64,000 bases of DNA from Euglena gracilis (taxonomy: Eukaryota). Under the pieces are notes generated by a model. The model was not told the DNA's origin. It did no database searches and saw nothing but the letters and a program-made list of their open reading frames with translations. Shown here in pieces: positions 881-43,500 of this stretch (position 1 is its first letter; each line of letters starts with the position of its first letter). The stretch covers positions 33,949,737-34,013,736 of the forward strand of contig CP154954.1 in NCBI GenBank assembly GCA_039621445.1, given 5' to 3'. The position numbers and the translations under genes were made by a program.

Positions 881-1207
881 AGACCTCCCTGCGAGGATCG
901 AATGGTGTCCGAGGACGAGGCAGCCCTGGAGCGAAACACAACAGAGGAGGACCACTGGGGCCTTGTTGGCAACGAACGTCATCCACCACACAAACCCTTA
1001 TTTATCGTATACTGAGTGTCGACGCTCCAGCACTGAAAACAACACCACCCTGGCCGCTGTGAAGACCAAGGAAAGCACATATGCACACACTTTCTGCACA
1101 GACCCCATCCGCAATGGCTGCAGTCAAGCATGGCACATCGGGATGAATGCGCACGTGAATTCCCTTCTTGTGTCTCCCCTTAAAGCACCCTGGTAGGAGG
1201 TTGCCAC

Positions 1208-1475
1208 CAGGGGTTTTTTTTAAGACCGGGGGAGGGGGGGGTCCCCCCACCCACCCCTGGGGGGCCCCCCCGGGGGTCCCGGGGGACCCACAAAAAAAAA
1301 GAGCGAAAAATTGCGAAAAATGCTCAAAAAAAAGCACTTTTTCAAAAATTTTCGGCGCCTTTGGCGGCGAAAAGTATATCCCACCCCCCTCCGGGGGGAC
1401 CCCCCGGGGTGGGGGGGGGGGCTCGGCCGGACCCACCCACCCTACGGGGGTCCACAACCAAAAAAAAAAACCCTG
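1208..1475. mobile_element. hAT-type MITE, family A
   Basis: Ends CAGGGGTTTTTTTT...AAAAAACCCTG; 8-bp TSD GTTGCCAC at 1200-1207 and 1476-1483. Confidence 0.85.
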
Positions 1476-1483
1476 GTTGCCAC

Positions 1484-2330
1484 CAGGCTTGTGCTTAAGT
1501 ACCCCGGGGGGGTACTGGCTAGCCAATCGGCTAGACACTGGAAAAAATGGACCAGCTAGACCCCCCCTCCCCAGGGTTCGATATAAGGACAGGTGGGGGG
1601 GGGGGGTCCGGACCCCCCCCCTGCGGGCCAGGAGGGGGGGGGGTGGGGGGGGAAACCCCCCCCCCACCTAAACAGGTGCGCGGTCTGGGTTACCGAAAAT
1701 TTTTGACCCCCAAAACGACCAAAAGTGCCATTTTGGGCACTTTTTGGGCGAAAATGTGCCAAAAATGCAAAAAAATTTTCGGCGCAAAGCTCCGGAGGAA
1801 AAAATTGACCATTTTTGGGGGGGGGGGTCCCGGGAAAAACCACCCCGAGGGTGGGGTCGGACCCCCCTGGCAGGTGGGGGGGGGTGCGGACCCCCCCTGC
1901 GAACCAGGAGGGGGGGGGGGTGGGGGGGGCCACCCCCCCACCTAAACCATGTACGCCCTCCTTATATCAAACCCTGGCCCTCCCCCCCGGGGGGGTCCGG
2001 GGGTCCCCCCAACTGGAAAAGTTTTTTTCCTCCGACGCTGCGTGCCGAGGTGGAAATGAGGTTATAGGTTTTGGGCTGGTTTTCTTCCAAAAATTCCCAA
2101 AAATGGCCAAAAACGGGCATTTTGGGCCATTTTGGGGAGTCCCAAAAAAAAATTTCCGGCGCTTTGCGCCGGTCACTGGAAAAAAAAATTCCACCAGCCA
2201 GCCGTGCTAGCAGACCCCCCCCACCCCCCGGGGGTCTGCTAGAAATCCCACTAGCCAAATTTGGACTAGCTGCAGTCCAGCCCCCCCCCCCCCCCGGGGG
2301 GGGGACTGCAATCCCTTAAGCACAAGCCTG
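1484..2330. mobile_element. hAT-type MITE, family B, with nested family C element at 1572-1976
   Basis: 16-bp TIR CAGGCTTGTGCTTAAG; TSD GTTGCCAC at 1476-1483 and 2331-2338. The nested element has TIR CAGGGTT(C/T)GATATAAGG and TSD CCCCTCCC/GCCCTCCC. Confidence 0.85.
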
Positions 2331-2400
2331 GTTGCCACGCAGGGCCATGCCAAACAACTTGGCACACAAGGTGGAGGCACAGTCCAGGAGACAGGGTCTA

Positions 2401-4299
2401 CCGCAAAAGTGGAATTTTAACATTTTGGTTACCTCTGTGGAGGCTCCGCGGAGCCTCAAGGTAACCAGCCTCCACGGAGACTAAGGTAACCAGCCTCTGC
2501 GGAGCCTCAAGGTAACCAGCCTCCACGGAGACTAAGGTAAACAGATTTGCCAGGGCATGTTCTGAACATGGAAATGAATGGGAATTTGTTTTTTTGTGTT
2601 GTAAAGAGAAACATTATTCAATGTCAAACACGGCGACTGCACTCAGTGGCAGATCATCCACTTCTGAACTTGTCAGAACCTGTCTGTTTTCTGCCCATTT
2701 GCACAGAGGATACAAAAAATTCACGGACTTTGGGTGGCAACAATAGAGCTTAAAACGAAAAAGAAAACGAATTCATTCAGCCAGAATTACAGCAAAATTA
2801 TCCAGAGGCCAGAATTGTACCCAAAATTGTGACCCTGATGGGATTTGTCTCAGCTTTTGAGCCCGGATTGCACTGGAGTGCATCGTCTACAAGGAGAACT
2901 AACAGTCACGCAGGGGGAGGTGGCAAGCAAACTGCACGTCAGCACAGATGTCATGTTGCAAAAAAAGGTAACGTGAAATCCAAAGCGGCGTCCATTTATC
3001 TGTGCCGGGGGGAGGGGGGCAGGGGGGGAGGGCACCTCCGCCCCCCCCGGACCCCCCCCTGCCCCCACCCCCCTTCCCTTCTCCCACCTACCCCCCCCCC
3101 CCCCCCCCCCCCCACTTCCCAATAACAACATCCTATTATGTGGACCAGGGGCTTTCTTAAGGACCCGGGGGGGGGGGGGGTCCAGCCTCCGGCTGGCAAA
3201 AAGGCTGTTGGCTGGAAATGAGCTGCTGGCTGGACCCTCCCCCCCCGGGGATGGGGGGTCCGGGGCTGGAGCAGGCTGGGCTGGGCTGGGTCGATGAAAA
3301 CCAAAATTTTCTAACACATTTTTGCCGTTTTTGACATTTTGATGGATGGATCTGGATCAAGGCTGGGGGGCTGTGATGGAGGAAGCTGTAATGAGGGGAA
3401 AAAATGCAGGGATAGGTGAGCTGGGCAGCCCAGTTGGCTGGCCAGCCTGCGGCCGGCTGGCCCGGCCTCCGGCCGGGCTGGACCCGACTTTATTTCACTC
3501 GACCCCTGGGACAGCCCGAATTTGGGCTGCTGGCTGGATTTGAGCTGCTGGCTGGCTGGACCCCACCCCCCCGAGGGATGGGGTGCCCTCCGGCTTACGA
3601 AAACCCCTGGTGTGGACAAAATTTGGCGGACATGGCGCAAATGGCAAACAGGTAAACAATAAAGTTAACAAAATAAGGCGGACATGTCGTTTTTGTGGTA
3701 AATGGATAAATGGTTTCGAACAAGTTTGGCGGATATGGCTTAAATGGCAAACGGGTGAACGGTCTGTGCTCATCAACGGACATGGCATTTTTGTCGCAAA
3801 CGGGGGGTATAGGGACGTGTGTGAGGGAAAAAAAGTTTTGTTTTTGTGGGGACGTGGGCGGTGCTGGAGTCTAAACAAAATTCAATTTGTAAAAAGATAT
3901 ATGGCAAAAATGAAAATTTTTTTTGTGGAGTTGGGTGAAAAAATTAAAATAAAATTCCTCTTCCTCTGGGCACCAGTGTGGGTGAAGTGGGGGGGGGGGT
4001 TGGCGCCAACCTGTAAAACATTTTTTATTTTTTTTGGCCCGCGTACAGAATTGGTTGCCTCCGCGGAGCCTCCGCGGATGCTCCAAGGAAACCAGCCTCC
4101 GTGGAGACTCTGAGGTAACCAGCCACCGCGGAGCCTCCGAAGAGCCTCAAAGAAACCAGCCTCCGCGGAGACTCAAGGTAACCAGCCTCTGCGGAGGCTA
4201 CCAGCCTCCGTGGAGGTTCTGAGGAGGCTAAGGTAACCAGCCTCCGCGGAGCCTCCGCGGAGACTAAGGTAACCAAAAGTTAGGATTCCACATTTGCTG
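2401..4299. mobile_element. TIR element with subterminal GGTAACCAGCCTCCGCGGAG tandem repeats; contains a nested MITE
   Basis: Imperfect ~30-bp inverted ends (GCAAAAGTGGAATTTTAACATTTTGGTTACC / GGTAACCAAAAGTTAGGATTCCACATTTGC). Repeats at 2430-2540 and 4050-4275. TSD not clear. Confidence 0.55.
3146..3609. mobile_element. hAT-type MITE, family D
   Basis: CAGGGG...CCCCTG; TSD ATGTGGAC/GTGTGGAC; largely identical to 5575-6151. Confidence 0.85.
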
Positions 4300-4339
4300 G
4301 GACCCCAGGAGACATACACCCGACTTTGGCGGCATCCAC

Positions 4340-4529
4340 CTGTGCAATGAGATGCCACTGAAATCGCTGCCAAAAGGGCCAGCATGCCACAATGCTGTGC
4401 TGGCACTGGGTTCGGGTTTCCAAGCACAACTCCCCACAACACAGGGAGTGCGCACCTGCGCACTCCCCCTGACGGAGTGCGCAGGTGCGCACTCTTGTGG
4501 ATGCCTAGCGCTGCTCCCCTCCTGCTCTC
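4340..4529 (-). CDS. Tentative further MFS exons (4501-4529, and from 4436 downward) separated by a 64-nt hairpin intron candidate at 4437-4500
   Basis: The AG acceptor at 4530-4531 is in the phase required by the previous exon (GEQEGSSARH). Removing the hairpin gives WGVVLGNP...GMLALLAA, which is weakly TM7-like. Confidence 0.35.
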
Positions 4530-5574
4530 CTGCAGATAGAATCACAGCCAGCCAGCGAAGGTATGGCCACAAGAGTGTGCACGTGTGCATTCTTGTGCTT
4601 CATGCAACCTCAGAGAGGAGCCGTTTTATATCGTTTGTGAGGGCTGTTCTGGAGGGTGCAATCTGTTGCAGAGAGGATTGAAGCGGGGCTCCGCTCCATA
4701 GCTTTTAAAACCAGTGACACACAGGAAAAGAGTGCAAGCCAGCCCCCCCCCTCCATACCCAGCACCCCATCCCAAACGTCAGACCTAAACACAGGTGGCC
4801 CCACATGGTGGTGTGCCGTGGTGCCTATGAGAAGGCACATGCGGAGAGGACGGCGTACGCCACTGGAAGATGCTGTGCCTGCATGTGTCGCAGAGGGGTG
4901 CAGTGCACCGTGTGGAATGCAAACAGCAGGCAGCCGGAAGAGGGTAATGAGCCCTCCCTACAAATATCTAATGTGAATTTAAACACCACCACTCTCTGAA
5001 TGCAGACTACACGCGTACACGCACACCAAACATTCACTAGCGCCCCCTCGTGCCCTGCTTCCAACACAGGGCACAGAACCTCAGAGACCACGGTGATTCC
5101 TTCCCACAACCACCGGGGGAGCCACAACAAACGTCCAAAAAGACGCCAGGAAAAGACCAGGACGGGGAGGGGGGTGAATGCGCACCTGCGCATTCACTGG
5201 GCACCACAAAACAGGGGGGACAGCAACAGGTACAACGGCTTCACCTGACCAGGTTTCGTCCCCGTGAAACAGCGGCGTTTTGTGTCGCACCTCTTTCGGC
5301 AGACAGGGTTCCCCCCCCCCCCCCGTCGGCGTAGGTGGTAAACTGTCATTTTCAAAACGAAAAAGGTCGGTTTACCAAGGAAAAAACCCGGGGGTCGAAG
5401 GTAATGGTACCCATTATTGTACCACGGGTTTCAGCTGACGGGTGCACCGCCCCGTGAAGTGATGGCAACGCAGTTCGTGAAAAAAGAATGCGCAGGTGCG
5501 CAAAAAACTACCAAAAAAGAAAAGTACATTCCCGGCCGTCTAAGGGGTGGCCACATTCGCCCAATCCTGGCGAC

Positions 5575-6151
5575 CAGGGGATTTCTTAAGGACCCGGGGG
5601 GGGGGGGTCCAGCCTCCGGCTGGCAAAAAGGCTGCTGGATGGATTTGAGCTGGCTGGCTGGAATAAAAAAAAAAAAAAAAAAAAAAACAAAAACAACACA
5701 AAAAAAAAAAAAAAACAAAAACAAAAAAAAAAAAAAAGTAAGGGGGGGGGGAGGGGGGGAGGCGGGCGGGGGGGTGGGGCGGGGGGGGTGGGGGGGTCCG
5801 GGGCTGGAGGGGGCTGGGCTGGGCTGGGCTGGGTCGGTGAAAAACAAAATTTTCTAACACATTTTTGCCGTTTTCGACATTTTGATGGATGGATCTGGAT
5901 CAAGGCTGGGGGGCTGTGATGGAGGAAGCTGTAATGAGGGGAAAAAATGCAGGGATAGGTGAGCTGGGCAGCCCAGTTGGCTGGCCAGCCTGCGGCCGGC
6001 TGGCCCGGCCTCCGGCCGGGCTGGACCCGACTTTATTTCACTCGACCCCCGGGACAGCCCGAATTTGGGCTGCTGGCTGGATTTGAGCTGCTGGCTGGCT
6101 GGACCCCACCCCCCGGGGGGTAGGGTACCCTCCGGCTTACGAAATCCCCTG
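5575..6151. mobile_element. hAT-type MITE, family D
   Basis: CAGGGGATTTC...GAAATCCCCTG; perfect TSD CTGGCGAC. Confidence 0.88.
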
Positions 6152-7852
6152 CTGGCGACCCCCCGGGGGGGGGGGAGTCTGGAGCAGCCATTCATTTAGT
6201 GCGCACCACAACTTCGTGGTGATACACAAATTTTCCTTGGGTGATACACAGGTGATACACAAAAATCTTCGATGTGATGCACATATTTTTGCCTCATTAT
6301 TTTCATCGGAAATCAAAAATTTTTGTAAAGGTCTGGCTCCCTTCGGGCGGCTGAAGAATAAATAAAATCCATCACTTCGACTAAAGAGACATCCTCGTTT
6401 CGCGGGAACCAAACCCATTGGATTTGAAATCTCCTTCAAAACGCGGAAGCATTGGGTTTCGCTTCAAACAAGAATGCAAATTACTTTCCGGTTCACCTTC
6501 TTCTGACCCCCAGTGGGGGTGGGTGGTCACCGCTCTTCCAAAAAAACCAGTCACTCACTTCTTTTTGGAAAACATGGTCGTGGAGGGATCGGCCAATCCG
6601 GAATCCAAGGGAGAAAAAAAGGCAAAAAGTTTTCTGGCGCCTTCGCCGTCAGGCCGCTTTAGTGGTTTTTTTGCCGACCCCCCCCCCCCCAGTGGAGGGG
6701 CCAAAGGCCAGTCAGTCACTCTGGGAAAACCAGTGACCCATGTTTCCATCACGACAGATGCAAATCAAAGAAACATTGGATCATTCTGTTTTTGCCACAT
6801 AATCACCGAAAGATGACAAAGATAGATATTTCTGGCATTGGTGCTGAGCGAAAAGAAATTAAAAATATATTTTCCATATTATATTAGATATTTAGCAGGG
6901 GTTTCTTTGAGGACCCCAAGCGTGCCGATCAAGACAAGAAACAGAAGAGTGCTGCATTCGCTGCAGCGGGAGAAATAAAATAAAGGGTAAGCATTACAAC
7001 GTTAAATTTTTTCTATGAGAAAAACATATTTTTTTTTCAATTTCAGCAAATTTTCTGGTGATACACAAAGTGATACACAAACTTTTTTGGATGATACGCA
7101 AATGCTGCACAAATCTTTCTTTTTTTGGTGATACAAAGTGTAACACAAAATTTTTTGATGTGATGCACATGATACACAAAAAATTTTGGTGAACACTAAC
7201 TGAATGTGTGGTCTAGAGCCAAAAACCAGTCGGTCACCCCCCCCCCCCCCCCCGGGAGTCAGATACCATAAGCAATGGTATGGTCCACACACCAGGCCCA
7301 GCTCCAGGCCACAAACCAGGCCCAGCCCACCAAACATCACACTTCGGAGTCAATGCCGATGGCAGCCCTTCTTTAAACCCGGGTCCTCAAAATTGGAATC
7401 CTACCTTTCTGGTTTCCTGATGGAGGGAAACCAGGAACTGGGAAGACTCCAGGTGGCCAGGTGGCCGGGTTGTGCCCTTGAAGAAAATCCAAGTTCAACC
7501 CACACAACACTGAGGGTCGCCCAGGGTATTAAGTGAGCGGAGAGTGGAGGGACAGACTGGACCCTCTTCCCCCAGGGCCCCCCCTTTGCAAGAATTTTTT
7601 TCGGTGCAAAGCGCAGGAAAAATTTTGGGGCCTTGAAAAACGCCCCAAAATGCGTTTTTCACACTTTGTTTTGAATAATCGGTCAAAACATAAGCCATAC
7701 TTTTCATCTTTTCTGGCGCAAAGCGCCGGTATTTTTTTTTGGTTCAGGGGGTCCCTGACCCCCCTGGTCGGAAGGGGAGGGGTATGACCCCCCCCCTCTC
7801 CCCGCAAAACCACCATCACTTAACACCCTGGGATCGTCCTTTAGCCACAAAC

Positions 7853-27094
<19,242 letters not shown>

Positions 27095-30051
27095 CTGGCA
27101 ACAACGTGAGGGGTGAGGAGTGGTACCATTTTGGGCGCCGCAAAATTTTGCCAAAAATGCAAAAAATTTTCGGCGCGAAGCGACGGAGGAAAAAAATTGA
27201 CCCTTTTGGGGGGGTCCCGGGTACCCCCCCCCCCAGGGTCGGTCCGGACCCCCCTGGCAGGTGGGGGGGGGGGTGGTCTGGCCCCCCCCCCCTGCGGGCC
27301 AGGAGGGGGGGGGGGTGGGGGGACACCCCCCACCTAAACCCCATACGCCCTCCTTATATCAAACCCTGGGGGGGATAATTGTGGTGGCGACCATTGCCCG
27401 GGGTTTTAAATGCACTCCCAATCCGGAATGCGGAGAGAAACAGTGGGCTTGACCTTCACCGCTATCTTAACTGTCCAAAATGTGAAGCTAGGATCAATCT
27501 GTTTTGAGAGATATCGGCTGGCAAAAAAAAACCTGACAGAATACTCTGTGATGTTCAGATGCACAAGAATATGCACAAAAATATGCACATTCTGGCTGCT
27601 TTTTTGCCTGACAGGGAAAATGACGAATATCGAGATCCCACTGCCACTCTGGGAGGGGTAGTACAACGCTCTTAGAGTGCTCTCGTTCGCCCACCAGAGG
27701 GTTATTAAACACTTGTGTTGTTTGTAATGTACCAGTATGGAGTGTACACCCAACGGGCAGTTTCCGCCAATGACTTCAGGAGCATGTGCACGTGCGCGCG
27801 TGCATGCGCATGTGTGTTTGGCATCATACTGGGTCTCGGGGGTTGTTGCGGCATGTGTCATCCCTCCATGGGGCTGCAAAGAAAGAAACCAGTTGGACTT
27901 CTGCCAAATATTTCGAAGTAGGCAGTCTGGGTCAAAGGATAAAATTTTTGTTTCAATCAGGGTGCTTAGTGACCCCCGGGGGTCCAGCTCAGAGGCTGGA
28001 CCCCCCTTTTTTCGACCTTTTTGGGTCTAAAAAGGCTGCTGGCTTTCTTCAACCCAAAAAGATCCACGGAGGTGCCCCCGGCTGGAAGCGGCCTGAGCCC
28101 GACTGGGGGTCGCACCAGGGAAAAAAAATTGAAACAGACCAAAAACTGCCACCTATAGAAAAAAAAATCATTTTTTTGACATGGCCTGCTCTTTTTCAAC
28201 CCATCTTTGCCCGTTTTTGGCCCAATTTGAGACCTCTAAAACCGAAAAATCCGTTACCATCCAGCCGTCCTTTGGGAGACTCCAAAACAGTTTAAACGTC
28301 GATGGCGGGGGTCTGGAGCTGGAAAAAGCTGCTGGCTAGAAAAAGGCTGCAGGTGGGCTGGACCCCGGGGGGGATGGGGCAGGGGGAAATATGCAGCAAG
28401 GCACCTCGAAATATGCAATGCAAAAAAATGCAGAAAAGTGCAAATAAAAAGATACAAAAAGAATGCAAGTTGCATATGTAGATTCCTTCAGGAGCTCCCC
28501 GGGGCTGTACACTTCTCCACTGGAAAGGACTTAGAAAACTTTCACCTGCTCCAAAAATGCAACACCAAAATAGAATGTGGGTGCAAACTACAAAGTCATA
28601 TGGTGGTTCACCTAATTGCATCCACTTATCCATTGATTTCATTATGCAACTGCTTATGTGCATTAGGTCCGTATGCAACTTCCCGCTCTCTGGCAGTGGA
28701 GCAATTTGCCCGTTTTGTCTGTGCAAATGCATGGGGAAAAAATCGGAAATCGGAAAAACAAAATGTGCAAAAAATGTAAAAAATGTAAAAAATGCAAAAA
28801 AATATTCAAAAATTTTCATTATGCAAAAAAATGCACATTATGCAACTTGCATATCCCCCCCTGGATGGGGTGCCCTTTGGTTTAAGCGGCGCCTTGGTTT
28901 CGGTTCCTTCTATGGACAACATTGCTCATGAAAACAATGAAATGAACTCACTTTGCATGCATCTTTGCCTGCTGACTTTCACCGCCAAATGGAGTAAAAG
29001 AATGGTGCCACCAAAGCCATTTTGAGGTGAGGCATGAACTATTTGCTCTCATTGGACAATGGAAAGTGCTTTGACTGTTTCCCATTCTCCAAACCCTTAT
29101 GCCAACCTTTTCTCCAAACCTCGAGCCCTTACCCTTCACTGGCAAGCCCTTGCTTCGGAACTAAAGATGAGCACTAACCCATGCAAATTTTCCTCCCATT
29201 CATCACATATATGGTGTGGCATTCTCCCTGGAGCCTCCCCAGGGGAGTTGGTTGAGGAGACATAAAATCTTCTTGTGCATGAGCCAACCTTTGCCTGTTT
29301 GACACGAAGGCAATTGAGCCAAAAACAGAGCACATTTCAGCGGATGAAATCAGACTGCAGCTAACCAACCTAGGGGGGGAGATTCGGGTTGCACTGGAAT
29401 GCCTGGGCAGGTATTGGAATGCCTAGGCATTACATTACGCTGCACTGCTGCACTATCAAACTACCCCATTGAGGGGTCAAAATGCTCAGAAAAGGCTTCT
29501 CTGGGCTTCAGGCGCCTTTGGCGCCGGAAGAGCCTTGGCCGAGTACGAGTAGTAGGGGTGGACCTGGTTGCCTTGGAGTGCCTGCCCAGGCAGGCCCCCC
29601 AAAGTGGGGTTGGCCTCGCCCCAAAATTCAGCCTGGATGACAATACATCAGCAACATGATGCCAGGGTGGAATAGAAATACAAAATTCTGCAAAATTCAC
29701 AAAATATATTTTAATTGTAATGATTACAACAACCCAAAAAACAGATGACTAAATGATGTTGTCACAATTTGGTATAACTCCTAGCAAACACCTGCAAATA
29801 CCTGTTCAATCCTAGGGAATGGAGTATGGCTCACAGAAAGAAGGTATTGTTCAGTTTCAAAAAGGGGCCCACGTCATGTTGCAGTCACGGACGGCAAGAC
29901 CACTGGCAAGAATAGGACGTGGCAAAGGGAGTTGTCCCACAAGAAAGGAACCCATCGCCACATGGACAACATTTGCGTGCGGGAGAAGGATAGGGTACAA
30001 GGGGGCAGGGCAGACGTGGGCGTCCTTGTGTAGCGTTCCGGGGGACCCGAG

Positions 30052-31632
30052 TCATCGAAGGGGCTCGTCCTCCGTGGTGTTGCCCCAGGGGTCGCTGCCG
30101 CCGTGCGAGGAGTCGGACAGCTCCTCGGGGCCGTCGCCCCCCAACCCGTGCACCCCCCCCCCCGTCCCACCGAGCCAGGCGGGCCGTCCGGCCCTGGTCC
30201 AGTGGTCCAGCCCTGGCCGTGGTCTGCCCACCGCCTGCCTTGGCGCGCCACGGCACCGCCGCACGGGGTCCCCGGGGCATCTTTCCCCCAAAGCGACGAC
30301 CGTTCACAAACCCAGCCTCTGCTCTCGAGTGCGTCCCCAGAGGTCAAGGGTGGGGACAGGCTGGGGGGGCCACGCGCGGTGGAGTCGACCCGGCCGGGGG
30401 CCCGCTGGGGCACCGGGGCGGGGGCGGCGGGGGCGGGGGGGCCGTGCCGGCGGGCGAGGAAGAGGGCGCCGAGAACGCCGTGGGCCATGGCCAGGGGTTG
30501 GTGGGGGGGGGGGGGGGGGGAGGGGGGTTGGCCCCGGGGGGTCCCGGGGGACCCATCCACTTTTCCCCCAAAATGGCCAAAAATCGCGAAAATGCCAAAA
30601 AATAGCACCCTTTTCAAAAATTTTCGGCGCCTTCGGCGCCATATTTTTCAACAAACAACGAGCAAAAAACAACAAAAGAAGCTAACAATCGACTTAATCC
30701 ACCGTTGCAAAAAAAAAATCAGAAAGCCCCGCACCACGCGTCACGAAAGAACTGACCCCAAAATCTTCAGAAGTCAGATAGATGAGTGGAGAAAATGCAA
30801 AGGAATGGATGGCAGAAATATGGATCAGCGAGAGCAGATGGCAACATAATCATACCCACTCATGCTCAGACATGGGGAGGCAACCTGACTCGTAAAAAAA
30901 TCTGCCAGACATTTCAAAAATCAAAATGCGTTCAACTGGGGGGTATGCAGATATGAGAACGCTACTTCACCAGAGGCTTTTAAGTTTAATCTTCCAATGC
31001 ACACACAGATGACCTTGGTATAAAGATGGGTAGGGATCAGAGTTTGCATGAGGCACTGTTTGGAGGAGCAGAACCTTGGTGGGCGTGACACTTACACGTG
31101 GAGGCACCGCCTGAACTGGTTCACCGCCTTTCGGAGGCCTCTGTCCTTGATTTCACCTTGGCACTTTAGAGTTTTGTCACTCTGGTGGGCACTGGGCATT
31201 TCGGGGGGGGGGGAGGCCGCCCCCTGCCACCCCCTGGGCAGCCGCGGCCGTCGGGCCGGGGGGCCGACCGTCGCTGCCGCCTTCCTCTTCACCCCCTTGC
31301 CCTTGCCTTTCCCCTTGCCCTTGCCCTTGCCCTTGCCGGGGACGAGGGGCTTCTGGGGCAGCGCGGCCCCGGGGCCCCCCTTTCGAGCCCCCCAACGTCA
31401 CAAGGGGCGGGGGGGGGGGGTGCTGGGCGGTGCCAATGGCTGGCGGTTTGTTGGGAGGCATTGGTGGGGACGAAGGGGCGGCGGGAAACGTCCCCCTCCC
31501 CTTCCAAGGATGGACTGGGGGCCAACGCGTTGGGGGGGGGGGTGTCTGTGGCAGCCGCGCCAACGCCAGCGCAGGGGGACGCAACGGGGGAAAGGGTCGC
31601 CCCGCATGCCTTCCCACGGCGTTGTCCAGCCG
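30052..31632 (-). CDS. Probable GC-rich low-complexity exons (~31200-31632 and ~30052-30490), possibly the 3' part of the 32.8-kb gene or the 5' part of the MFS gene
   Basis: GC-rich islands with a (GGCAAG)n repeat and the peptide EELSDSSHGGSDPWGNTTEDEPLR*. Frame and exon joins unresolved. Confidence 0.3.
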
Positions 31633-32761
31633 GGGCCACGCCGTTGCTTGCTGGCCCTCGGGTGTGGGTTCACAATCCATTTTCAGAAAACAAGTGAGTG
31701 AAAAAGCCGAAATAATCACCCAAGGATCGTGTCAAAAAAAAAACTGTTCACGAATAAATCGGAACCTGCAATTCACTTGAGAAATCATTTGGTGAGAAAA
31801 ATTTAGTAAAATTTCACAAACTAAAAATAAAAACCCCCAACTCTCCCCTGTGCAAAAACAACACTCAGTCAATACCCTGTCCCCCCCCCCCCGCCAAGAC
31901 TTTGCACGTGTTGCTGCCAAGTGTCACAAAGGGCAGACCAGGGGTTGCACTGCTGAATGCACCGTTGCTTTTTGTCGATTTTTCAAAAAAAATTTGACCC
32001 AAAATTTCTGCTCCCGCAAAGAAACTTTGCGAGGCAGGAGGAAATCGAAAACTTATTTGGGGAGGAGGCTGCATCATTTTTTGGGCCCCTCTCCCGCTTC
32101 GGGTTTTCCTGGACTTCAAAAAAATACAGGAGTTAACCCCCCCCCAAAAGAATCCGGGCCGGGCTGGGCCGGACGGAAAAAATGACACCCTGATGGGGTA
32201 ATATTGCAAACCAATATTACCTCCCCCCCCCCTTGTCTAAGCACCGGAAAGATGGGTAAGAACCGGGGGGGGGGGGTGCTTATTTTGCCATAATATGGGT
32301 AAGAACGAAGGGGGTGGTGCTTTGACAAGGGGGAAAAATTTGACTGCAAAAAAAAAATCTGGCGCTTCGCGCCGAAAACGAAAAATCCCCTTATTTTGGA
32401 GGTCCACTGTTGAACTCACACACATTTGGATGCAGAAATCAACAATACCTCACCAAATCAGGTCTCAGAAATTGCAGAAATTTCGAACTTTTTGAGAAAT
32501 TTCCCTTAAAAATGCACACAAAATAAACATCCCCGTGACGATGACCTTTAAAAAGATGGGTAAGAACCGGGGGGGTGGTGCTTAGACAAGGGGGGGGGGG
32601 GAGGTACAATGCTTGCCGAAAAGAATTTTCTCCACAGTGCCAAATTCTCAACAAATATACTTTTCTTCAAGAATGACTTCAGCCACGCAAACAATAAATC
32701 CCAGCAACGTCAAAGAAACTATGCACTTCTCCCAAACTCAAGGGCAAGCAGGGGCCTGGCT

Positions 32762-32926
32762 CTGGCACAGGTCCAGCATGAACACCTGCTGCTCCGGGTT
32801 GCCCAGCACCCGGACCAACCCCAGGCCGGGGGAGTAGCAAGTCCGGGCCGCCGCCCCACCGACAGGGAGACCCCAGCACCCGACGGTTCAACGTTTGCCT
32901 CCAGGACGAGAAAGGCGGTGCTAAAC
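32762..32926 (-). CDS. Two exons (32886-32926, 32762-32838) of an unidentified protein gene, separated by a 47-nt non-conventional intron candidate
   Basis: AG acceptor at 32927-32928 and GC3-rich codons. Splicing 32839-32885 (CGG at +4, CCG at -8) gives FSTAFLVLEANVERYSPGLGLVRVLGNPEQQVFMLDLCQ. Confidence 0.5.
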
Positions 32927-35185
32927 CTGTTGATGCAACGGCATCACCGCGAGGCGAGCTGGTTTCAAGAATATCCTGTTGGGTCCCGGCGTTTTGAAGC
33001 AGGCCCCAATTGTGCACCAAGGCTGGGTCACGCCCCGTTTCTGGAGTCAAATTAAAAAAAAAAAACGACGGACTGCAAAACACCAAAAAAATTCAACAAA
33101 CGTGTACTTTGCTCACAGTCACTACCCTACCCTGCCGACTAACCAAGTTAATTCAGCATCACAGGCATATGCAGTATCCTGATCTCGGTATATACACTGT
33201 CCTCCCTTCTTTCTTTAGCTGTGCATACGAAGGTGACTTAGCAGTACGCCAAAAAGCAAACATCGTCCAACAGACTGCGTACAATCCGCACTGATGAACC
33301 CGACTGCCTGCGTGATCACAGTCACTACCCACACGTGTGGTTTCATATGAAGCGGAATCCCGCTGCCTCCAGTAAAAGCAAAAAAGTAGGCTGACACTGG
33401 TAGGGAACCACAGGCCGTATATGGAGGAGGTGGGCAGTCCCCGCCACTTACGGCCTTTGCTGGCCATTGCCAGCGGCAGCCCACAGAGGACGTTCAGTTA
33501 AAGCAGCTGAATATGTGTGGTTCGGACTGTGTAATACTTTGTGGTCACATCACTCGGTATGAACAAATATAATCGCGATTCAAGTCGTAGGTGAAGCGGT
33601 TTTCCGCTTCATTCTATACTGTCTGGCATATAAAAGTGTCTTTCGCCATACCTTTAGTGGTAAAAACTCCACCAAGGTCATGTTTGCAGAGGACTTCTCA
33701 TGGACTCGATGAACTCAGCGCAAATGTCGTACCGAAGGCTGAGATACGTGCACGATGAGTTGCAGTGGACCAATCTTGGCTTCGGTCCACCACTGTAACC
33801 GCGTTCTTCAATCTGGATGCTAACATTGCGATTGTTGTTCTGTTCAAGGTACATGCAACCGGTAAACAGTTATGCAGCTTGCGAGTGACATTAAGCATAT
33901 TGGACACCTTATTAAAAGGTAGCGGAAACCCGCCTCCTGTTCATTCTGCCACTGTATTTTGTCTGGATTGTAAGCATTGGAATTCAGTACGCGATGTTGT
34001 TAACCGTTTAACGCTTAACAGAACCACAAAATGCATTATGCAACCTTCAATGTAACGTACGTAACGTTTATGTACTGAGATGAATGGGGAGCCTGGACTG
34101 TACGATCACCTGCCCGGTCCAGCAAAAGCCGTAACCGAACCCCTGACGGCTGGGCACCGTTCAGGGGTGCGGGGAAATGAATTGGACCAGGTCCAGCCTC
34201 TCCTCTTTCTGTGAAATTGTGTCAAATACGTACAAAGCAAGCGGAAAACCACTTGCTTTGTCTTGAAGACCTGGTTTTCATGGACCTACGCATGTGTCCC
34301 GCGTACAACTCAACCGCCCAACGGCCAATTGTACCATGCACCTGAAATGTTAGTTCTGCATTTAGTCTAGACCTGGAACCACTCTGTTTTCGGCAGTGCA
34401 AGGCGGGGAGCCACGGGGCTGCCGGGTGCCTGCTTCCACCGCTTGCGGCCCCGGCAGTCCACAGGAACAACCGACAGCGACGGTGGCTAACGTCGGTGTC
34501 AGGTAGAGTGTATCACAGAGATAGAACGTGGTCTCTCCTCCTTTTTATCCTGTAAAGCATAAATTGTTCCTGTATTCCCGTCTGTTCTGTTTCAGTTGCG
34601 CTTTATGCAATATCACGACTATGTTTATCTGTGAAGCGGTATTCCGCTTCACTTTATTTTCGTTGTTACGCTTATGCGTCGGGTGTACACATGTATCTGT
34701 TATGCATATACTCGCATTATGTATCTGTCTGTGTGTCAGACAGATGTTGCCGTTCGTTGTTTGTCCATAATAATAATTTTTCTACAACATTTGGTTGTTT
34801 CGTATTTCCATCGGGATCTGCTAAAAATAAATTTCAGAAATCATCGAAGCGGTTTTCCGCTTCATGTGTTTTGTCATCAATATCACCGAAAAAATTTGCA
34901 CTTCATGCGCAACTTGAAAATTTTCACTGTTTTTCAGAGCATTTTTCGGGCATTCCAGGTGGTACTTCAGTCAAATTTTTCACGGGCAATTTATGCCTCC
35001 TAAGCTTTGGGCATAAAAAATGTACAAAATGAAATCAGCATAAACCTCAAACCAATAACCCTTGAATTTGGGGAGGGTACCATTTTGATACAACTGTGTG
35101 CAAAATAGACATTTTTTTTAGTATACCAAATCCTTCAAATTAAACAACATATCCAAACATAACAGACTTTCCTTTTTTTTTTGAG

Positions 35186-35634
35186 AAATGGCAGAAGCCC
35201 CCCCCCTCGGGTTTTCCGCAGACTGACCGAATAGTAGCCCTGGGGGGCTTCTAATTGGGGGGGGGGGATACGAAAGGCCTACTCTTGGGGTAGGGCTAGG
35301 TTTTTGGTTAATTGAAAACAATAGGGTTAGGGTGAGGTTTTGGGAATAGAGTTAGGGTTAGGGTTTAGGCCTTTGGCCTAAATTTCAGCTAAATTCGGCC
35401 TAATTCAGGCCTAATATAAGCCTGATTTCGGCCCAAGTCCCTAACTTTGGCCTAACCCTAACCATAATCCCTTTCTTAACAACAACTGTAACCCTAACCC
35501 TGCCCCTAAAAATAACGAACACCACCAAAACGTGTCGTCGAAGCCCCCTTCAGCTTGTGTTCAAGAATGTGGACCTCCCCCCGTTTAACTACTGGACCCC
35601 CAGGGGGGGGGGCAGTAGTTAAAGGCTGCCATTT
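35186..35634. repeat. Small inverted-repeat element containing degenerate TTAGGG and then CCCTAA repeats
   Basis: AAATGGCAG/CTGCCATTT ends; TTAGGG units at ~35322-35370 and CCCTAA units at ~35439-35508. Confidence 0.55.
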
Positions 35635-36428
35635 GAAAATCCAATCGGTGGCTGGGTGTCCCAGATTCAAAAAGTGTGGAAACAGAGTCAAAAAGAGTGC
35701 GATTTCAAATAGCCTGGAAACGGCCCTGCTTTCATCACAAACAGGAAACTAATCGTACACATAACCATGGAAAAAATGTGCTCGTGTTCATGACCACCAA
35801 ACCATTCCGATCTAAAGGTATGAAACACATGTGGGCTGATACGAGTGGGTCAAGTGTTTTATCTCCAAGATGTTGCTGTGTTAAAGAACTCCACAACCAC
35901 AAGAAAAACTAAAATCTTACCAAAATTTTTGGCATCATAGCAAGAAGCGTTTCATATTTTCAACTGTATTTATGAGATCCGAATCCGAGAATTCCTAAAC
36001 AAAATACCGCTTTGCTCCGCCGCGGAAGGTTATTCGGGTTTTTATAAAAGCATTCTGATGTGCCTGAGAATTTCAGTGTCACAATTCGCTGGATCCCCTC
36101 CCCTAAGCGCCCAGAATTGTCACCGACACCCTCCAAGGTTGTGAGGCGGTGCAAGCCATGCCACACCTTTCTGACTGTGGTCGGTGACAAGCCCATCAGG
36201 CCAAACTTAGGCCGCCCAATGAAAATTTGACTGGGCAAAGATCCCGAAAGCAGCACCAAAAACCCCGCAAAATTTTTTCAAAGTTTTGGATGTCAGAGTT
36301 GACTTAAAAATTAAATTGGCTGCTGTTGTTGGCATCGCTGTGTTGTGGCAGGCAAGCACCTTCCCCCTTGCATCCCCCATCATTGCAAGAAAGCGGCTCA
36401 AATGAAACCTTGATGACTGAGGCTGGAT

Positions 36429-38398
36429 CAGGTTTTTTTTTAAGACCGGGGGGGGGTCCCCCCCCACCCACCCACCCGCTGGGGGCCCTGGGACCCCCCC
36501 CGGGGGGTATTTTCGACACTGCCAAACGTGAATGCGGCAAAGCAAACACGCCATTCAGAAATATGATCGAAATATGTTACAACAATGGTCTGTGCAAGTC
36601 GGAAGGAGGGGTAACAGCGGTCAATCGGACTCTGCCCACGACGTGGTGGAATCCGAAGACACAGAGGAGTCGGATGCATCCGACGAACTCACCACACGTT
36701 GAGACAAAGGGGATGACTGCGAAGCGGAGGAACCAGGTCCCCTGGTTCTCCGCTTCTTATGCTTCCCCCCCTTGTCTGAACGAGGGTAGCGAAAAGGCGC
36801 ACGGCGCTTTGCCAAAACAAGAGACTTGCAAATGCATGATTTAAGAAGTTGAATTTGGTTCTTTCGTGACACTTTCACTTGTTTATTGACCCATGTCCAT
36901 TCTTTGAAACATGCGAAACGATATGAGCACATTCACATGGAAAAAAAATACCAAAAAAGGGCCAATGGTTTTGCAAATCTCTAAAAGCGGCCATGTGGGA
37001 AACAATGGGTGAGGGGTCGAACTGCTCCTAAGGTGGAGAGTCCAAAGCTACGATTAGGGTTTGAGACACAACAGATGGATCCAAACGCAATCATTGGGGG
37101 GATAGGAGAGTGGAGAGGCGGGAAAACGCTTGCTCGACCACCGCATTGCTGGGTGTCAGAGCTAACGCCATCCGCAATATGATGTGAAGGTTTGGAAACA
37201 CATCTTTCTGCTGAATGATGCGTTTCCAAAATGTGTGTGAATTGGTAGGTGACCAAAGGGTTTGGTCGTCCGGCATGACGCTCAACGGCAGTGTGCACCA
37301 GGCGCATGTTCTCGTGGAAGTGCGCATGGCCACAGGATGGATGTATTTCCCCTTGGAATTTCATCCATTCTGTTTAAGGCTCTAGGCGCTTGGCCATGGC
37401 GATGACCATGCGACACTCGGTGGTACTCCAGTCCTCCTCCTTCGGCACCTCCACCACGGGCTGCATGTTGAAGCCCCAATCTCCAGCAGGCACACGATCC
37501 GCCTTCGCCTCGTTCACCAAGAAATGCGCGTCCGTCGGCGTGCAGTTGTCAGACTGCAGGGGGCATGCCAATGGCATGCCCCCCTGGTTTCGAATGCGCT
37601 TGGCATGTCCTTGTAGAACATTCTGCAAATTCAGCTTGCGCTCCTCCTCCGTGAACACGATGAGCTTGCGGACGGCGTTCATCACTTCGGCATCATGGCT
37701 TCCGTCACAATGGACGAAAATCATGGGTATTGAACTCCGGCTTCTTTTTGTACACAGGGCGCTGCTGTGTCGAAGAGGCAGCAGCAACTTGGAGGACAGG
37801 GGAAGCGACTGGTGGAACAGGGGGAGCGACTGGTGGAACAGGGGCAGCATCAGCAGGTTCGGCTTCGCCGCCGCCGAAGCACTCCTCGAGGCGCGGCTGC
37901 AGGCGGAGCGCCCGCATCGCAGCCCGGTGCTCCCCGGACTTCTTGTGCTCGCGCACGGAATTTTTGACAGCAATTACAATTTTTTTGGAATCACCGTGAC
38001 CATGGAAAATGCCGATGTTTGCAATTGTCACAAAGATCAAATCAATGATGATTTCTGTTGAATTAACAAAGAAACAAATCATGTGACAACTGAAATGAGA
38101 AATATATTGACATTCACAAAGCAAAACACCAAAATCATACATAATGAAATAAAATTGTAACTGTCCAGAATTCTTCAACATGGAACCACAAAAGCACTTG
38201 TACATTTTGGCTGTGACAAGAGGCGCGGCAAAGAAAATTTTCGGCGCCTTCGCCGCCGGTCAAAAAAAAAAAAACTCCGGCACCCATGGCGCCGGGGACC
38301 CACCAGCCAAAAAAGGTACCCCCCTGGGGGGGGTCCGGCCGGACCCACCCACCCCCCCCTCCCCCCCCCCGGGGGTCCACGACTAAAAAAAACCCCTG
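36429..38398 (-). mobile_element. Internally deleted hAT DNA transposon with family A ends and transposase remnants
   Basis: CAGG...CCCCTG ends like family A MITEs; perfect TSD GGCTGGAT. The minus-strand peptide FPNLHIILRMALALTPSNAVVEQAFSRL (37091-37333) fits the hAT C-terminal dimerisation motif. Confidence 0.85.
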
Positions 38399-40549
38399 GG
38401 CTGGATGCCACTCCACATATTCATTTCAGGAAAGGGGTAGCACTCTCTGAACCACCCGCGTCTTCCACAATGCTGCATCCCAGCTCGTTATTGAACCCAC
38501 AAAAAAACTTCAGACCCATCACATTTGGCCAAAAACGTCCCCGATGCCCTCCCTCTCCCATTCAATTGAGGTGCTGCTCCGCAATGTCCGCAATGCCCCA
38601 CACGGGGCAATGACGGCACTTGTCAGGAGGGCACAACACATTCCCTTCGTAAGCGCACAGCTGTGGGTGTTCCAGGGATTAAACAAGACGGCTGCAGCAC
38701 CATCCAGACGGCATTCCGTGTCCCGCAATATACAACTGGGCCAAATCACAACAACTCGCTGACAACCAAATTTCCCACAATACAATTCTAAACCTCCTCC
38801 AGGGGGAGAAACTGCACACGGGCCTGTCAATAACTGCACTGCAAAAAAACTGCAAAAAAAAACTGCAAAAAACTACAAAAAAAAAGAAAAAAAACTGCAC
38901 TTCAACAAAAAATAACAATAAACAAGCTGAAATGGTATGCATATGCAAAAAAACGTAAATTGCTACCACATGAGCACGCCCCAATTCACCTAACTTTTTT
39001 TGCACGGCTTTGGAGCCGATGACGAAAAAAATGGGAGCAATCAATCAAGGTGCACTGTGCATGGTTTTTCATGCACTGAAATGCAAGTCATGTGTCCAGA
39101 TGCCGGGTCACACCGGTTTTCCTGCACCAAAACTTGTGCCGACCATGCCCACAAAGATGCCAAACGGCTGTCTTTCTAAATATGGGGAAAATGCACATTT
39201 ACCCATACACAGAAATTTTCAATACTTTCATTTCTTCCAGGGGATGTTCAGTTTGGAACTTCCGGTCCATCACCTGGTGAAGTTTCCCCATGTCACGATG
39301 AAAAAAAATCTACAAAAACCACCACAAACTTTGAACATTGTCCTTAGGGGAATGCCAAATGGTCTACAACCTGGGAATTTCTTGCAAATAAGAAAGAACT
39401 TCTTGCTCTTTGAAGCATTTGGCTTATATGACATTTGGCCACAATGCTTGGGGCAAGACCCAATCTTCTTCAGGAGTTCATTTACAGCACCACGAATTTC
39501 GAAATCCTCAACTCCAACTGCAACCAAAATTTGCACAAAAAAACAGTTTTTGTATTTAGTCCCTAGGAATCCCGACATAAATAGTTGAATCTGCTCAGGA
39601 GTGCGCAAATGACACTTGCCAAAATGAGCATCGTCACATCTGTCACCACAGGCTGGAGATGGAGCAATTTTGGTTGGGGAGTAATTGTGGTCTTGTCACC
39701 GAAACAATCTGTTGTTTTTTTTTGGAATGGTGGCTGCACCAATCTGTGTTTTTAAGAGGCAAGGCAGTTGGCAATACAGTTGGGGGCAAAACAATTGGTG
39801 GGATAACTGTAGACAACACAACTCCTGAGAGATGATGCCTTTTCTTGAGAAACACCCTTCAAAACATATAATCCAGCACCCAAAAAAAAACAGACACGTC
39901 AGGTTTCCTCAAAATTGGAATAAAAAAAACTGCAAAAAACTGCACGTGTGCAGTTTTTTTCAGAAAAAAAAGCTGCAAAAAAACTCCAAAAAAATTTCAA
40001 AAAAAAAACTAAAACCTGAAAACTGCAAAAAACTGCAAAAACTGCGCGGTGCATATCCCCCCCCCCTGGCTCCTCCCTCCCCCTGCATTCATGTGTCATT
40101 TTGCAAGGCCCCATCTGGACCAGGCTGGGCCAGGTTGGGCATGTTCTACGATTCTCCCAGATGAACGTGCCATCACAGCAGAACCTTAGTGTTTGACCAC
40201 TCACCACCACCGGAATGTCCATGACATACAGGCTATTTTGAATTGCACACATGCCAGATGAAAGCAGTGGGTTCCGACTTCGTCTCCCCCTCCTTCTAGT
40301 GCCCCTTCCGACCACTCAGGCCTTTGAAGTCATTGCCCTGAAAATTTTTATCTTCAGAACGAAGCGTGACTCTGCTTCCTCCTGGCCGCTTTAAGATTTT
40401 TTGGGAGTTTCTGTTGCACCTCCTCCTGCCCCTCATTTCTGCCGATTGACGTCCAAAACGAAGCGGGTTTTGGCAATCTCCGCTTCCCCTTCTCTTCCCA
40501 TCTTCGCTAAAACCCCCAATTTTGGTCATTTTGCATTTTGGCGACTCGG

Positions 40550-43500
40550 CACGTGGTGCAATTTCGCGCCCGGGCCCACCCGCAATGAATACCACCGAAG
40601 GGCCACGGGTTACTCAGAAAGAGTTCACAAACACCATCGCAATCGCGAATAAGGTGAAGCCCCAATGGGACGGTGACCCGACCACATGGAAACAACTTTT
40701 CCGTGACTGGGAATACTTCTGGGACTTGAAGGGTCCAACCCAAGACGGAAACCCAGAAGTAATCAAAATGGAATTCATAGACTGTTTACCAAAAGACGAA
40801 AATGAACGCGCCAGACAATTTTTCATACGCGGGCGCATTTCTTTTCAGGATTTGGTAGAGCAATATGCTTCTTCATGTTCAAGTTTGGTTTCCAGAATCA
40901 CTCTGGAGAAAAAATGGCGGCAATATGCCCCCCATGACCGAAAATGGAGGTCGATAGACCTATGGTACTCAAAATGGCTCGCGTTGGCAGCCGAAGTAGA
41001 CGAGTTAGGCGAAACCCAAATGAAAGAGGAATTTGACGCAGTATTACTGCACTTTATACCCAAACTCACAGAAAAAAATTCACCGAGAGGAACTCGCAGG
41101 ACATATTTTGACGCTCGATGAGCGATGGAACTATGTTTCCAAACAGTTGAAGCTATCACAGCTTTTAGGACAAATCCAGTCGGCTTATACGAGCCACCCC
41201 ACGGCAGGAATACCTGCTATCCAAGTCAGTTCTGTGAAAAAAGTGTCACACTTATCACATACCGCTATGGCGGAATCCAAGTTGCGCAATTCGCGCTCTT
41301 CAGAAGAATTTTCGGGCAAATTGTGCTTTTTGTGTAACAAAAAGGGTCATATACCTTGCCATTGTCCAGATCCTGCAGCGCGAAAACGCAACGCAAGCCC
41401 AAGAGGATCAGCTTCATCATGCAGTTCTCGTTTTTCACAAAATGCGCATTCGCAAAAATCAAAATACCAATCACGATCAACATGTTCACTGTGCGGATCC
41501 ACCACCCCTCCCTCAACTGTCGCTATGCGAACTCTCACCACCCAAGCCATAGCCATCACGATATGAGTCGCAGTTCAAAAGATCATACTTTAGCCAAAAG
41601 GCACAAGGTAGGTCAAACAACAACCTCTATCGAGGATTATCACCCGGCTTCGGGCAGGGAGGGGGATGATACCCCATGTAACCAAAGGGATCATCCCTGC
41701 TTTAGCACTCATAAATTCAGAGACGTATATGCGTCAAGAAAGTCAATGGCTGATATGGCCACCGGTTCAGTTTTTGAGTGAAGGTACCAAAAATCCAAGG
41801 ACACGGACTACAGAGGCTACTAGAAAGGAGGTGACAGGAGTCGCGACCCTGGTCATCCCCTGCCCAGTATCCTTTCTGGTCAGTGTGCAAGGATTTTCTG
41901 GTGTCCCCGCTCAAAATTTTCAGGAACCTTGGACATATAGACCGTTTTGTGTTTCCGGTTGTGGCGCATCATGGGATACCCCATGAATGTCCATGTGGTT
42001 GAGTGGATTCCCGCTCCAAGAATGCACACAACACCGCAAAATTCTTCCCCCCCCCCCCTCAAACTTCCACTAATCATCACTTTTACATACCGTTTTCGAT
42101 GACAGCAACACCGTTTTCCACAACGCCAACACCGTTATCAACCCGGGGTAAAGAGAACGTGCCCCCCCCCTACCCACCGCAAATCCACAAACGTTCCACA
42201 TGCGGTAGGGGTAACAAGTAGTTTAACCCCCATTCGTTCCACTGGGTTCCAAGACGAAAGCCCTAAGGCCTGAAGTTTAAACGGTGTCGAGTAGTCGCCC
42301 AGCTGCTTTCAACTTTTAGTTTTCCACCAGGTTTGTCGATTCAGACAATCCTGTACACCCCCAGCAGCTCCAAAATTCGCATGCTCAAATTTTTTATTAC
42401 ACACTCACCCCCGCAGACCGACATGCGCGACAAGGACAACTACTCCGCTCCTTCCCCCCATGGTGTGCACCCTGGGGGAACTTTCCACACAATCACCAAC
42501 CAAACACAAAGGTGAATATATACAGCGCATATCGCGAATCCTGCGCATATCGCGCTTCCAAGCCTACCCCCCCCCCACGCACACGTTGTGCAGTGAAGCA
42601 ACTGCCCCCCCCCGCGTATCGCGCCATATCATGCACGTATCGCGCTAGACCCCGCGCGTATCGCGCCACCCACCTTAGCAACCCCCCTTTCCCACAATGT
42701 CGTGTGAGCACTATCGTCCATTTATGACACATGGGTATACGCCCAAACCACCCATATTCTTTTGGGAATCATTCCCAAAGTTATATGTGTGGAAATCCGC
42801 AACTCTGTTCATGGATGTTTGTTTCTGTTCCACATGATCAAATTGCAGATTTTTTTTGATGACAGCAAACAAGAAGTGATGTTTTATGTGAATACCGTTC
42901 TTTGCCCAATCCATTCCCACACCAAAAATATTTCGGTGTTCCCAAAGCTTTATGGAGCAAAGCAACACAAGTTATGTGATAAAGTTTTTGGGATGTATTG
43001 CAAATACTGCATTTTTCCCGAACACTTATCCAACTTGTGCTTTTTTGTGCCTTAAATGGCTTATTATTTTGGCAAAATGCAATCCCGATATGGGAAAATG
43101 CTCAAAATTACAGAAGTGAATCCCGATAGGGAAATAAGTTGAATTCCTTGAGAAAATCTGCAACATAGTTGCCCCCCCCAAAAGAAAATGAAGAAAATTC
43201 ATTCAAACATGCATTTTTATGGACTTGACCACTTAGCCTTAGGTCTATGTGACCAACACAACCTATGATGTGCAAGGCTTATAGGCCATTACCCATGTGG
43301 TCCATGGGTCCATAGGACCAATTTGCACAATTTGCAAGGACCAAAAGGACCAAAGGTCCACAAATCCATATTATAAAGTGAAAAGTCCATAGGACCTCAA
43401 AAAATGGCACAAAAAGCCATATTACATGGATGAAAGTGGCTGAATTGGCCAAAACAAGCCAAATAGGCTGGTTTTATGCAGATTTGCATAAGTGTCACTT

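Follow-up and report, generated by a model that had tools for sequence, protein, structure and literature searches.

Miniature hAT transposons of Euglena gracilis share the geometry of nonconventional introns and are candidates for generating them

A 64,000-nucleotide stretch of the Euglena gracilis genome (NCBI GenBank assembly GCA_039621445.1, contig CP154954.1, positions 33,949,737 to 34,013,736 of the forward strand; hereafter the window, with positions counted from its first letter) holds a young population of non-autonomous DNA transposons of the hAT superfamily, with imperfect terminal inverted repeats (TIRs) of 12-16 nt and exact 8-bp target-site duplications (TSDs). [quoted passage not shown] We propose that hAT-type MITEs are a source, and probably a main source, of nonconventional introns, and that such introns are spliced scarlessly by way of the 8-bp TSD; we put the probability of this reading at roughly 0.55. 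From the sequence we infer that copies inserted in exons would be spliced in this way and that existing introns would descend from such copies. A bolder version, in which nonconventional splicing is itself an RNA-level excision of hAT transposons that reads the TIR hairpin, and in which MITEs gave rise to most nonconventional introns of Euglena agilis, is offered tentatively, with the odds somewhat against it.

The published code for nonconventional splicing reads N3-CAG...CTG-N5(-6)|R and includes paired arms behind the two trinucleotides (PMC12501133). According to the same source, neither CAG nor CTG can be dispensed with, the spacer must measure 3 nt on the donor side and 5 nt on the acceptor side, a purine is preferred as the opening base of the downstream exon, the pairing is required, and fully synthetic 50-bp introns with these features alone are spliced. 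The initial annotation of this DNA had described nonconventional introns in which 3 nt precede CAG and 5 nt follow CTG, and that paper confirms these spacers. When the seven transposon-like elements of the window were scored against the code, it was satisfied by 7/7 of them in at least one orientation and by 9 of the 14 element-orientations, with arms that pair at 9-12 of 12 positions. Since the elements end exactly in CAG and CTG and are flanked by 8-bp TSDs, cuts at the published 3- and 5-nt spacers would remove the element plus one TSD. The arithmetic on which the annotation built its proposal, 3+5=8, thus holds: element ends and TSD length are exact, and the published spacers sum to 8.

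The mechanism that we envisage is as follows. For a transcribed hAT MITE within an exon, the nonconventional machinery would be expected to cleave each TSD copy between its positions 5 and 6. If the target is numbered t1-t8, the upstream exon would end at t5 of the left copy and the downstream exon would start at t6, so that the intron would comprise t6-t8, the element, and then t1-t5 of the right copy. With the element and 8 nt lost, the original 8-mer would be rebuilt and the pre-insertion mRNA restored. At the intron 26983-27043 and at the MITE ends, 2 of the 3 bases that precede CAG can in most cases pair with those immediately following CTG. If these flanking bases do pair, as palindromic hAT targets would favour, the two cuts would be staggered by 2 nt, leaving a 3' overhang on the excised hairpin. 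Such a geometry would be reminiscent of RNase III-type cleavage; the 2-nt stagger is a possible clue to the nuclease.

The elements emerged from a scan for CAG...CTG pairs at a spacing of 40-3000 bp whose first and last 12 nt show at least 10/12 inverted-repeat identity. The window is of moderate GC content and rich in repeats, and 186 TIR pairs passed. Among these 186, abutting 8-mers with an identity of at least 7/8 were present in 8 pairs, of which five scored 8/8 and three 7/8, compared to 1, 0 and 0 pairs when the flanks were shifted outward by 8, 16 and 24 bp, respectively. Forty block shuffles that kept local composition yielded a mean of 59.8 TIR pairs, none of them with flanks matching at 7/8 or better. 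Seven of the eight well-flanked pairs are transposon-like elements belonging to four families, A-D, with TSDs matching at 8/8 in five and at 7/8 in two; the remaining pair is the 53-bp core of an intron discussed below. The finding extends from 1200, the left edge of the first TSD, to 38406, the right edge of the last one.

The most precise evidence for element ends and duplication length comes from the family A MITE A2 (18615-18892, 278 bp; with TSDs 18607-18900; no strand is assigned to this or any other repeat element listed here), which carries the TSD CACCGGAC at 8/8 and sits in a tandem array of a 21-bp unit. The element splits this array exactly, into Tandem Repeats Finder arrays at 18273-18614 and 18893-22942, and the array thereby offers an internal reconstruction of the empty site. 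Upon removal of the element plus exactly 8 bases, the period is recovered across the junction with 18/21 matches, compared to 3-9/21 at the 16 other offsets tried (0 to 16). Since the period is regained only at 8, CAG and CTG mark the exact ends of the element, and the duplication measures exactly 8 bp. Together with the counts from the scan, this result bears out the earlier claim of CAG...CTG MITEs with 8-bp TSDs. The array as a whole (18273-23187, ~4.9 kb) has a unit length that is a multiple of three and long open frames on both strands. If it were transcribed as an exon, A2 within it would provide a direct test case for the splicing of a young MITE.

The other six elements are as follows. 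The family A MITE A1 (1208-1475, 268 bp; with TSDs 1200-1483) has the TSD GTTGCCAC at 8/8 (1200-1207 and 1476-1483), and the family D element D1 (1484-2330, 847 bp; with TSDs 1476-2338), with a TIR of 12/12 and the same TSD at 8/8, follows it back to back. A common TSD copy stands between them, and GTTGCCAC is therefore present three times; the triplet looks like an insertion hot spot at which one 8-bp target was hit twice. Nested inside D1 is the family C MITE C1 (1572-1976, 405 bp; with TSDs 1564-1984; TSD 7/8). Family B is represented by B1 (3146-3609, 464 bp; with TSDs 3138-3617; TSD 7/8) and B2 (5575-6151, 577 bp; with TSDs 5567-6159; TSD CTGGCGAC, 8/8). The longest element, the non-autonomous hAT element A3 (36429-38398, 1970 bp; with TSDs 36421-38406), is flanked by GGCTGGAT at 8/8. 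In addition, we noted an older MITE-like element at 7522-7830 (309 bp), with a TIR of 13/14 that starts CAGGGT and flanks matching at 6/8, and two truncated copies. One of these, family A-like (30492-30640), has the left end CAGGGGTTGG and the shared internal core and is without a right end; the other, of family C (27128-27367), ends in CCCTG at 27367 and adjoins the putative start codon of the gene described below. The family A TIR had 0 exact matches in the metagenome contigs scanned.

Assignment of these elements to the hAT superfamily rests on the coding remnant in A3. Its open reading frame (ORF) at 37091-37360 on the minus strand matches the Pfam domain Dimer_Tnp_hAT (PF05699) with 22.1 bits against a cutoff of 21.4; the other 7 of its 8 ORFs had no hAT match in Pfam. 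By word search we found a more intact relative, P0002 (65% identity, E 7.7e-13), which itself contains Dimer_Tnp_hAT at 27.7 bits. Comparison of P0002 with the window by tblastn aligned 93 residues at 55% identity (E 7e-28) across two in-frame stops, and the alignment carries on in another frame at 36741-36803. The remnant, at 36741-37258 on the minus strand, is thus the C-terminus of a pseudogenised hAT transposase (its dimerisation domain); two in-frame stops and a change of frame interrupt it. A HMMER search with P0002 returned 113 proteins at E <= 0.001; the domain exceeded the cutoff in 10/10 of those relatives that were scanned, and it lies near the C-terminus in relatives of 650-780 residues. 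When P0002 relatives were in turn compared with the window by tblastn, all 91 high-scoring segment pairs fell in 36.5-37.5 kb, inside the 1970-bp element. They cover the C-terminal region alone, and the RNase-H-like DDE core of the transposase was not found in the element. Lacking a catalytic core, A3 is a pseudogenised deletion derivative, which does not contradict its hAT identity. A word search for longer relatives of P0002 and a PDB search gave no match, and a P0002-guided scan for further copies elsewhere confirmed no locus among 212 pattern matches. The annotation's statement that one longer copy carries hAT transposase remnants is accordingly upheld, by the Pfam match, by tblastn and by the relatives alike.

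The remaining families are tied to A3 by their termini and by shared internal sequence. Both ends of A3 match both ends of the family A MITEs over ~60 nt, so family A is its miniature derivative. An internal motif common to families A, C and D occurs at 7 sites in the window, always inside elements, compared to 0.52 expected, with 0/100 shuffles reaching this count. CAGGG stands at 11/14 element ends, CAGGC at both ends of D1, and CAGGT at one end of A3. The hAT terminal consensus is YARNG, and CAG-type ends are generic for hAT elements; the CAGGG ends described here fit this consensus. The hAT target consensus is nTnnnnAn. Among the 6 distinct target sites of the window, A was present at position 7 in 5/6 (P 0.006) and T at position 2 in 3/6 (P 0.13), a pattern that accords with this consensus only in part.

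We next turn to the introns. On the minus strand, six exons (27044-27129, 26893-26982, 25925-25988, 25786-25831, 25396-25511 and 24347-24426) join in one frame to form the N-terminal part of a transporter-like gene (24347-27129). About 160 codons could be assembled, and the predicted product is hydrophobic and contains a G-x3-D-R-x-G-R-R motif, which we take to be MFS motif A; judged by eye, it is an MFS-like transporter. Three of the five introns (904, 274 and 969 nt) have clean GT-AG ends. For the other two, at 26983-27043 (61 nt) and 25832-25924 (93 nt), the 3-nt/5-nt rule yields exactly these boundaries, and the reading frame is kept in both. Both start GGCCAG, both have CAGGG at both ends, and in both the downstream exon has G at +1 and C at +3; one ends in CTGGGCGG and the other in CTGGCGGT. 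The long intron at 25989-26892 could also be placed in frame by eye as N3-CAG...CTG-N5. Because its flanks match at 2/8 and its arms at 6/12, it was rejected as a nonconventional intron and read as GT-AG.

The 61-nt intron makes a convincing case for a nonconventional intron built like a 53-bp micro-MITE. It consists of a 53-bp CAGGG...CCCTG hairpin core (26988-27040) with 3-nt and 5-nt spacers, its flanking 8-mers match at 7/8, and its fold is a nearly perfect hairpin (-56 kcal/mol, z -3.77, with 0/200 shuffles as stable). Reading through it meets a stop codon, and inspection by eye found no frame-keeping GT-AG alternative. We suggest that it is a decayed hAT insertion of this small size. The 93-nt candidate (core 25837-25921, flanks 6/8) is not clear, since it has both an in-frame GT-AG alternative, at 25819-25917, that preserves the motif too, and an unremarkable fold (z +1.07, 173/200 shuffles as stable); by eye, its ends form no more than an 8/9 helix.

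It could be argued that neither intron is functional: the reading frame might be mis-modelled or belong to a fragment of a pseudogene, and the hairpin of 53 bp might be no more than a small palindromic insertion. The gene is indeed short as assembled: no further transporter exons were recognised in a search of the minus strand downstream, no exon or ORF has a Pfam match, the sole database match of an exon 5 query is an unspliced genomic ORF, and the truncated family C copy overlaps the putative ATG, so that the start codon may come from this copy or the true start may lie elsewhere. Three single exons were searched against Pfam individually and gave no match; 20 long ORFs of the window gave nothing relevant, with chance matches below the cutoff to Mucin (19.1 bits) and Baculo_PEP_C (18.4 bits). 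An Rfam scan gave no match. Against this, six exons share one frame that encodes a hydrophobic protein with the transporter motif, and three of the introns are clean GT-AG introns. Even in a pseudogene, moreover, the hairpin would stay a hAT-like micro-insertion with 7/8 flanks. We give this explanation very little credence. Around the gene we also noted a short dispersed repeat (88% identity) at 23357-23427 and 24767-24839; the 969-nt GT-AG intron contains one copy, and the second is found downstream of the last exon recognised.

To what extent the introns retain the TSDs of the proposed insertions was measured by comparing their flanks with three backgrounds, the first of which comprised every window position at the same spacing as the tested flanks; the sample is the two introns. 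For the 61-nt intron (7/8), P was 0.002 over all window positions, 0.015 for GC-matched positions and 0.035 for shuffles of its own composition. For the 93-nt intron (6/8), the respective values were 0.010, 0.046 and 0.106. The 8-mers that the initial annotation quoted as TSD relics, and their scores of 7/8 and 6/8, are correct; its description of both introns as clear was overstated, given the GT-AG alternative to the longer one. The GC-matched control that it had called for, run on these two introns, revealed a modest excess. As to its broader claim that the introns are decayed hAT insertions, the geometry holds, yet no family A-D MITE of this window is seen acting as an intron, one intron is unambiguous and the flank statistics comprise n=2, so that the claim remains inferential.

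Several observations weigh against the descent of introns from hAT MITEs. The flanks of both introns are G+C-rich, and their identity exceeds GC-matched chance by a modest margin only. The 93-nt intron could be a conventional one, and it belongs to a weaker TIR class in which TSD-like flanks are not in excess: when the TIR threshold was relaxed to 8/12 or 9/12, they occurred in 5/658 pairs, compared to 3, 2 and 3 in the controls. The 53-bp core has no second copy or relative in the window, and no family A-D copy in the window lies within a recognisable exon or acts as an intron. The host gene itself is an N-terminal fragment without a Pfam match. A 6-nt acceptor spacer is tolerated (PMC12501133), in which case exact restoration of the mRNA would fail. 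Finally, E. gracilis has Merlin transposon families that also have 8-bp TSDs (PMC8101967). The modest P values and the lack of an excess among weak-TIR pairs make the window's intron evidence suggestive, not decisive, and one window with one gene is too little for judging the genome on introner-like copy number.

Published observations on nonconventional introns provide a further line of evidence. A gapC intron present in a single strain of E. agilis, and hence recently gained, has eight-nucleotide direct repeats at its junction, longer than those of other introns (PMC4770533). For one tubulin intron, "nine positions possible" were reported (PMC3935182). The last base is a pyrimidine in the upstream exon as well as in the intron, and the first base is a purine in the intron as well as in the downstream exon (PMC4770533, PMC3935182); a duplicated target predicts the same Y|R rule at both junctions, because t5 and t6 would be seen twice. 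Among E. agilis introns, 84.4% overall and 69.1% of those that are nonconventional are "slidable" owing to junction repeats (PMC12501133). Nonconventional introns account for ~72% of E. agilis introns by the 2025 count (PMC12501133), and several hundred thousand of them have been reported for that species; the paper covers 649,158 E. agilis introns.

These observations admit another reading, in which introns arise by double-strand-break repair (Milanowski et al. 2016) or from another superfamily with 8-bp TSDs, such as Merlin, and the flank match in the window is a chance product of GC-rich, low-complexity sequence. The authors of the gapC study themselves take the eight-nucleotide repeat as a footprint of such repair, and make no link to hAT in the text available (PMC4770533). 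The flank P values of 0.015-0.11 for each intron, the weak-TIR pairs and the Merlin families with their 8-bp TSDs would all sit comfortably with this explanation. Break repair, however, predicts neither terminal inverted repeats nor a fixed length of 8 nt, and the CAG...CTG elements of the window are connected with the remnant of a hAT transposase and not with a Merlin DDE domain. Furthermore, chance would also have to account for CAGGG at both ends of both introns, as in 11/14 MITE ends. We consider this explanation unlikely.

A second alternative accepts the elements and questions their importance: the splicing system would be older than and unrelated to hAT, hAT MITEs would be tolerated in genes and yield some introns, and most introns, along with the 3/5 rule, would have another origin. 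The generic occurrence of CAG-type ends among hAT elements fits this view. So does the distribution of nonconventional or noncanonical introns in both euglenids and diplonemids, which suggests an old system (PMC6221363, PMC12621601). The machinery is in addition permissive, in that CGG-CCG variants are also spliced and acceptor spacers of 5-6 nt are tolerated (PMC12501133). However, the recently gained gapC intron with its eight-nucleotide repeat indicates that current gains show the hAT TSD length (PMC4770533). Mere compatibility would also require a coincidence in the terminal trinucleotide, the pairing requirement and the spacer sum of 8, all together, and strikes us as improbable. That nonconventional introns originate from hAT-type MITEs is the reading that we prefer.

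Several known systems resemble the one proposed here. Maize Ds, a hAT deletion derivative, can reportedly be spliced as a de novo intron (Giroux et al. 1994, as cited in PMC3935182). Like the elements of the window, hAT MITEs and deletion derivatives such as Ds have an 8-bp TSD, short TIRs that start from CAG, a parent with a dimerisation domain, and derivatives that arose by internal deletion. Ds differs in that its removal uses cryptic spliceosomal sites and is imprecise, whereas removal here would be exact by geometry. The introners of Micromonas and Aureococcus (Huff, Zilberman and Roy 2016, as summarised in PMC11282704) are non-autonomous DNA transposons with TIRs and a TSD. Their insertion creates an intron at once, and the TSD is used such that splicing restores the message; the likeness of the MITEs described here to them is by geometry alone. 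Introners differ in having spliceosomal GT/GC-AG sites and a 3-bp TSD, in contrast to a non-spliceosomal CAG/CTG hairpin and an 8-bp TSD split 5|3. The Merlin elements of E. gracilis share with those of the window that they are DNA transposons of a euglenid with an 8-bp TSD, and differ in their DDE_Tnp_IS1595 transposase (PMC8101967), the window elements being linked to the hAT domain.

With euglenid nonconventional introns themselves (Milanowski et al. 2014, 2016; PMC12501133), our elements share CAG at +4 to +6, CTG at -8 to -6, paired arms, a downstream purine and frequent junction repeats. A MITE-like origin of these introns was proposed in 2013 (PMC3935182) and has been repeated since (PMC6221363, PMC11170887, PMC12501133, PMC12621601, PMC11282704); the annotation's remark that a transposon origin had already been suggested in general terms is thus correct. 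A review counts CAG/CTG as part of the TIR and calls the junction repeats TSD-like (PMC11282704), and the 2013 paper stated that transposable elements had not been identified in euglenids (PMC3935182). The available text of these nonconventional-intron papers names no superfamily, gives no TSD length as the reason behind the 3/5 spacers, and describes no actual MITE families, the three points that the present window adds. The term hAT occurs 0 times in PMC3935182 and PMC11282704, and in PMC12621601 its one word-start match belongs to an author's name among the references. Transposons are mentioned 0 times in the draft-genome paper on E. gracilis. A search of the open full-text literature, which excludes subscription journals and supplements, found no paper linking hAT to nonconventional introns. 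The MITE origin is thus a hypothesis already in print, and the naming of the hAT superfamily and the explanation of the geometry appear to be new in the searchable literature.

Other repeats of the window are recorded here for completeness. A long foldback at 10142-10790 has 170-nt arms at 92% identity with small GC-rich palindromes inside, and differs in kind from the hAT MITEs. Its inner CAGGG...CCCTG pair (10299-10649) was rejected as a hAT MITE, its apparent flanking repeat being the palindromic extension of the larger foldback. An (ATAC)n microsatellite of ~217 units, followed by (TATG)n, occupies 8741-9913, and the two together form a long inverted repeat. A segmental duplication of ~6 kb joins 40550-46512 and 48699-54981 at roughly 98% identity; a ~175-bp extra segment in the second copy, at 50678-50858, was considered as a filled versus empty site and is not a CAG...CTG element. 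Finally, a 216-bp satellite is found at 54764-62573 in several blocks (86-95% matches) with unrelated stretches between them, and a partial copy lies near 46196-46600.

The origin of euglenid nonconventional introns and the mechanism of their removal form a question that dates from the 1990s. What the window supplies is real hAT MITE families for an origin earlier called "MITE-like" and left unnamed, together with a quantitative rationale for the asymmetric spacers of 3 nt and 5 nt: splicing can be scarless only if they sum to the length of the hAT duplication, 8 bp. On this TSD reading, the eight-nucleotide repeat, the nine-position intron and the matching Y|R rules would be re-interpreted as target-site duplications. 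Taken together, our findings give a known hypothesis a plausible, more specific mechanistic form that real elements underpin. If the bolder version holds, each exonic insertion of a hAT MITE would be scarless in the mRNA, and hAT MITEs would have been able to act as introners.

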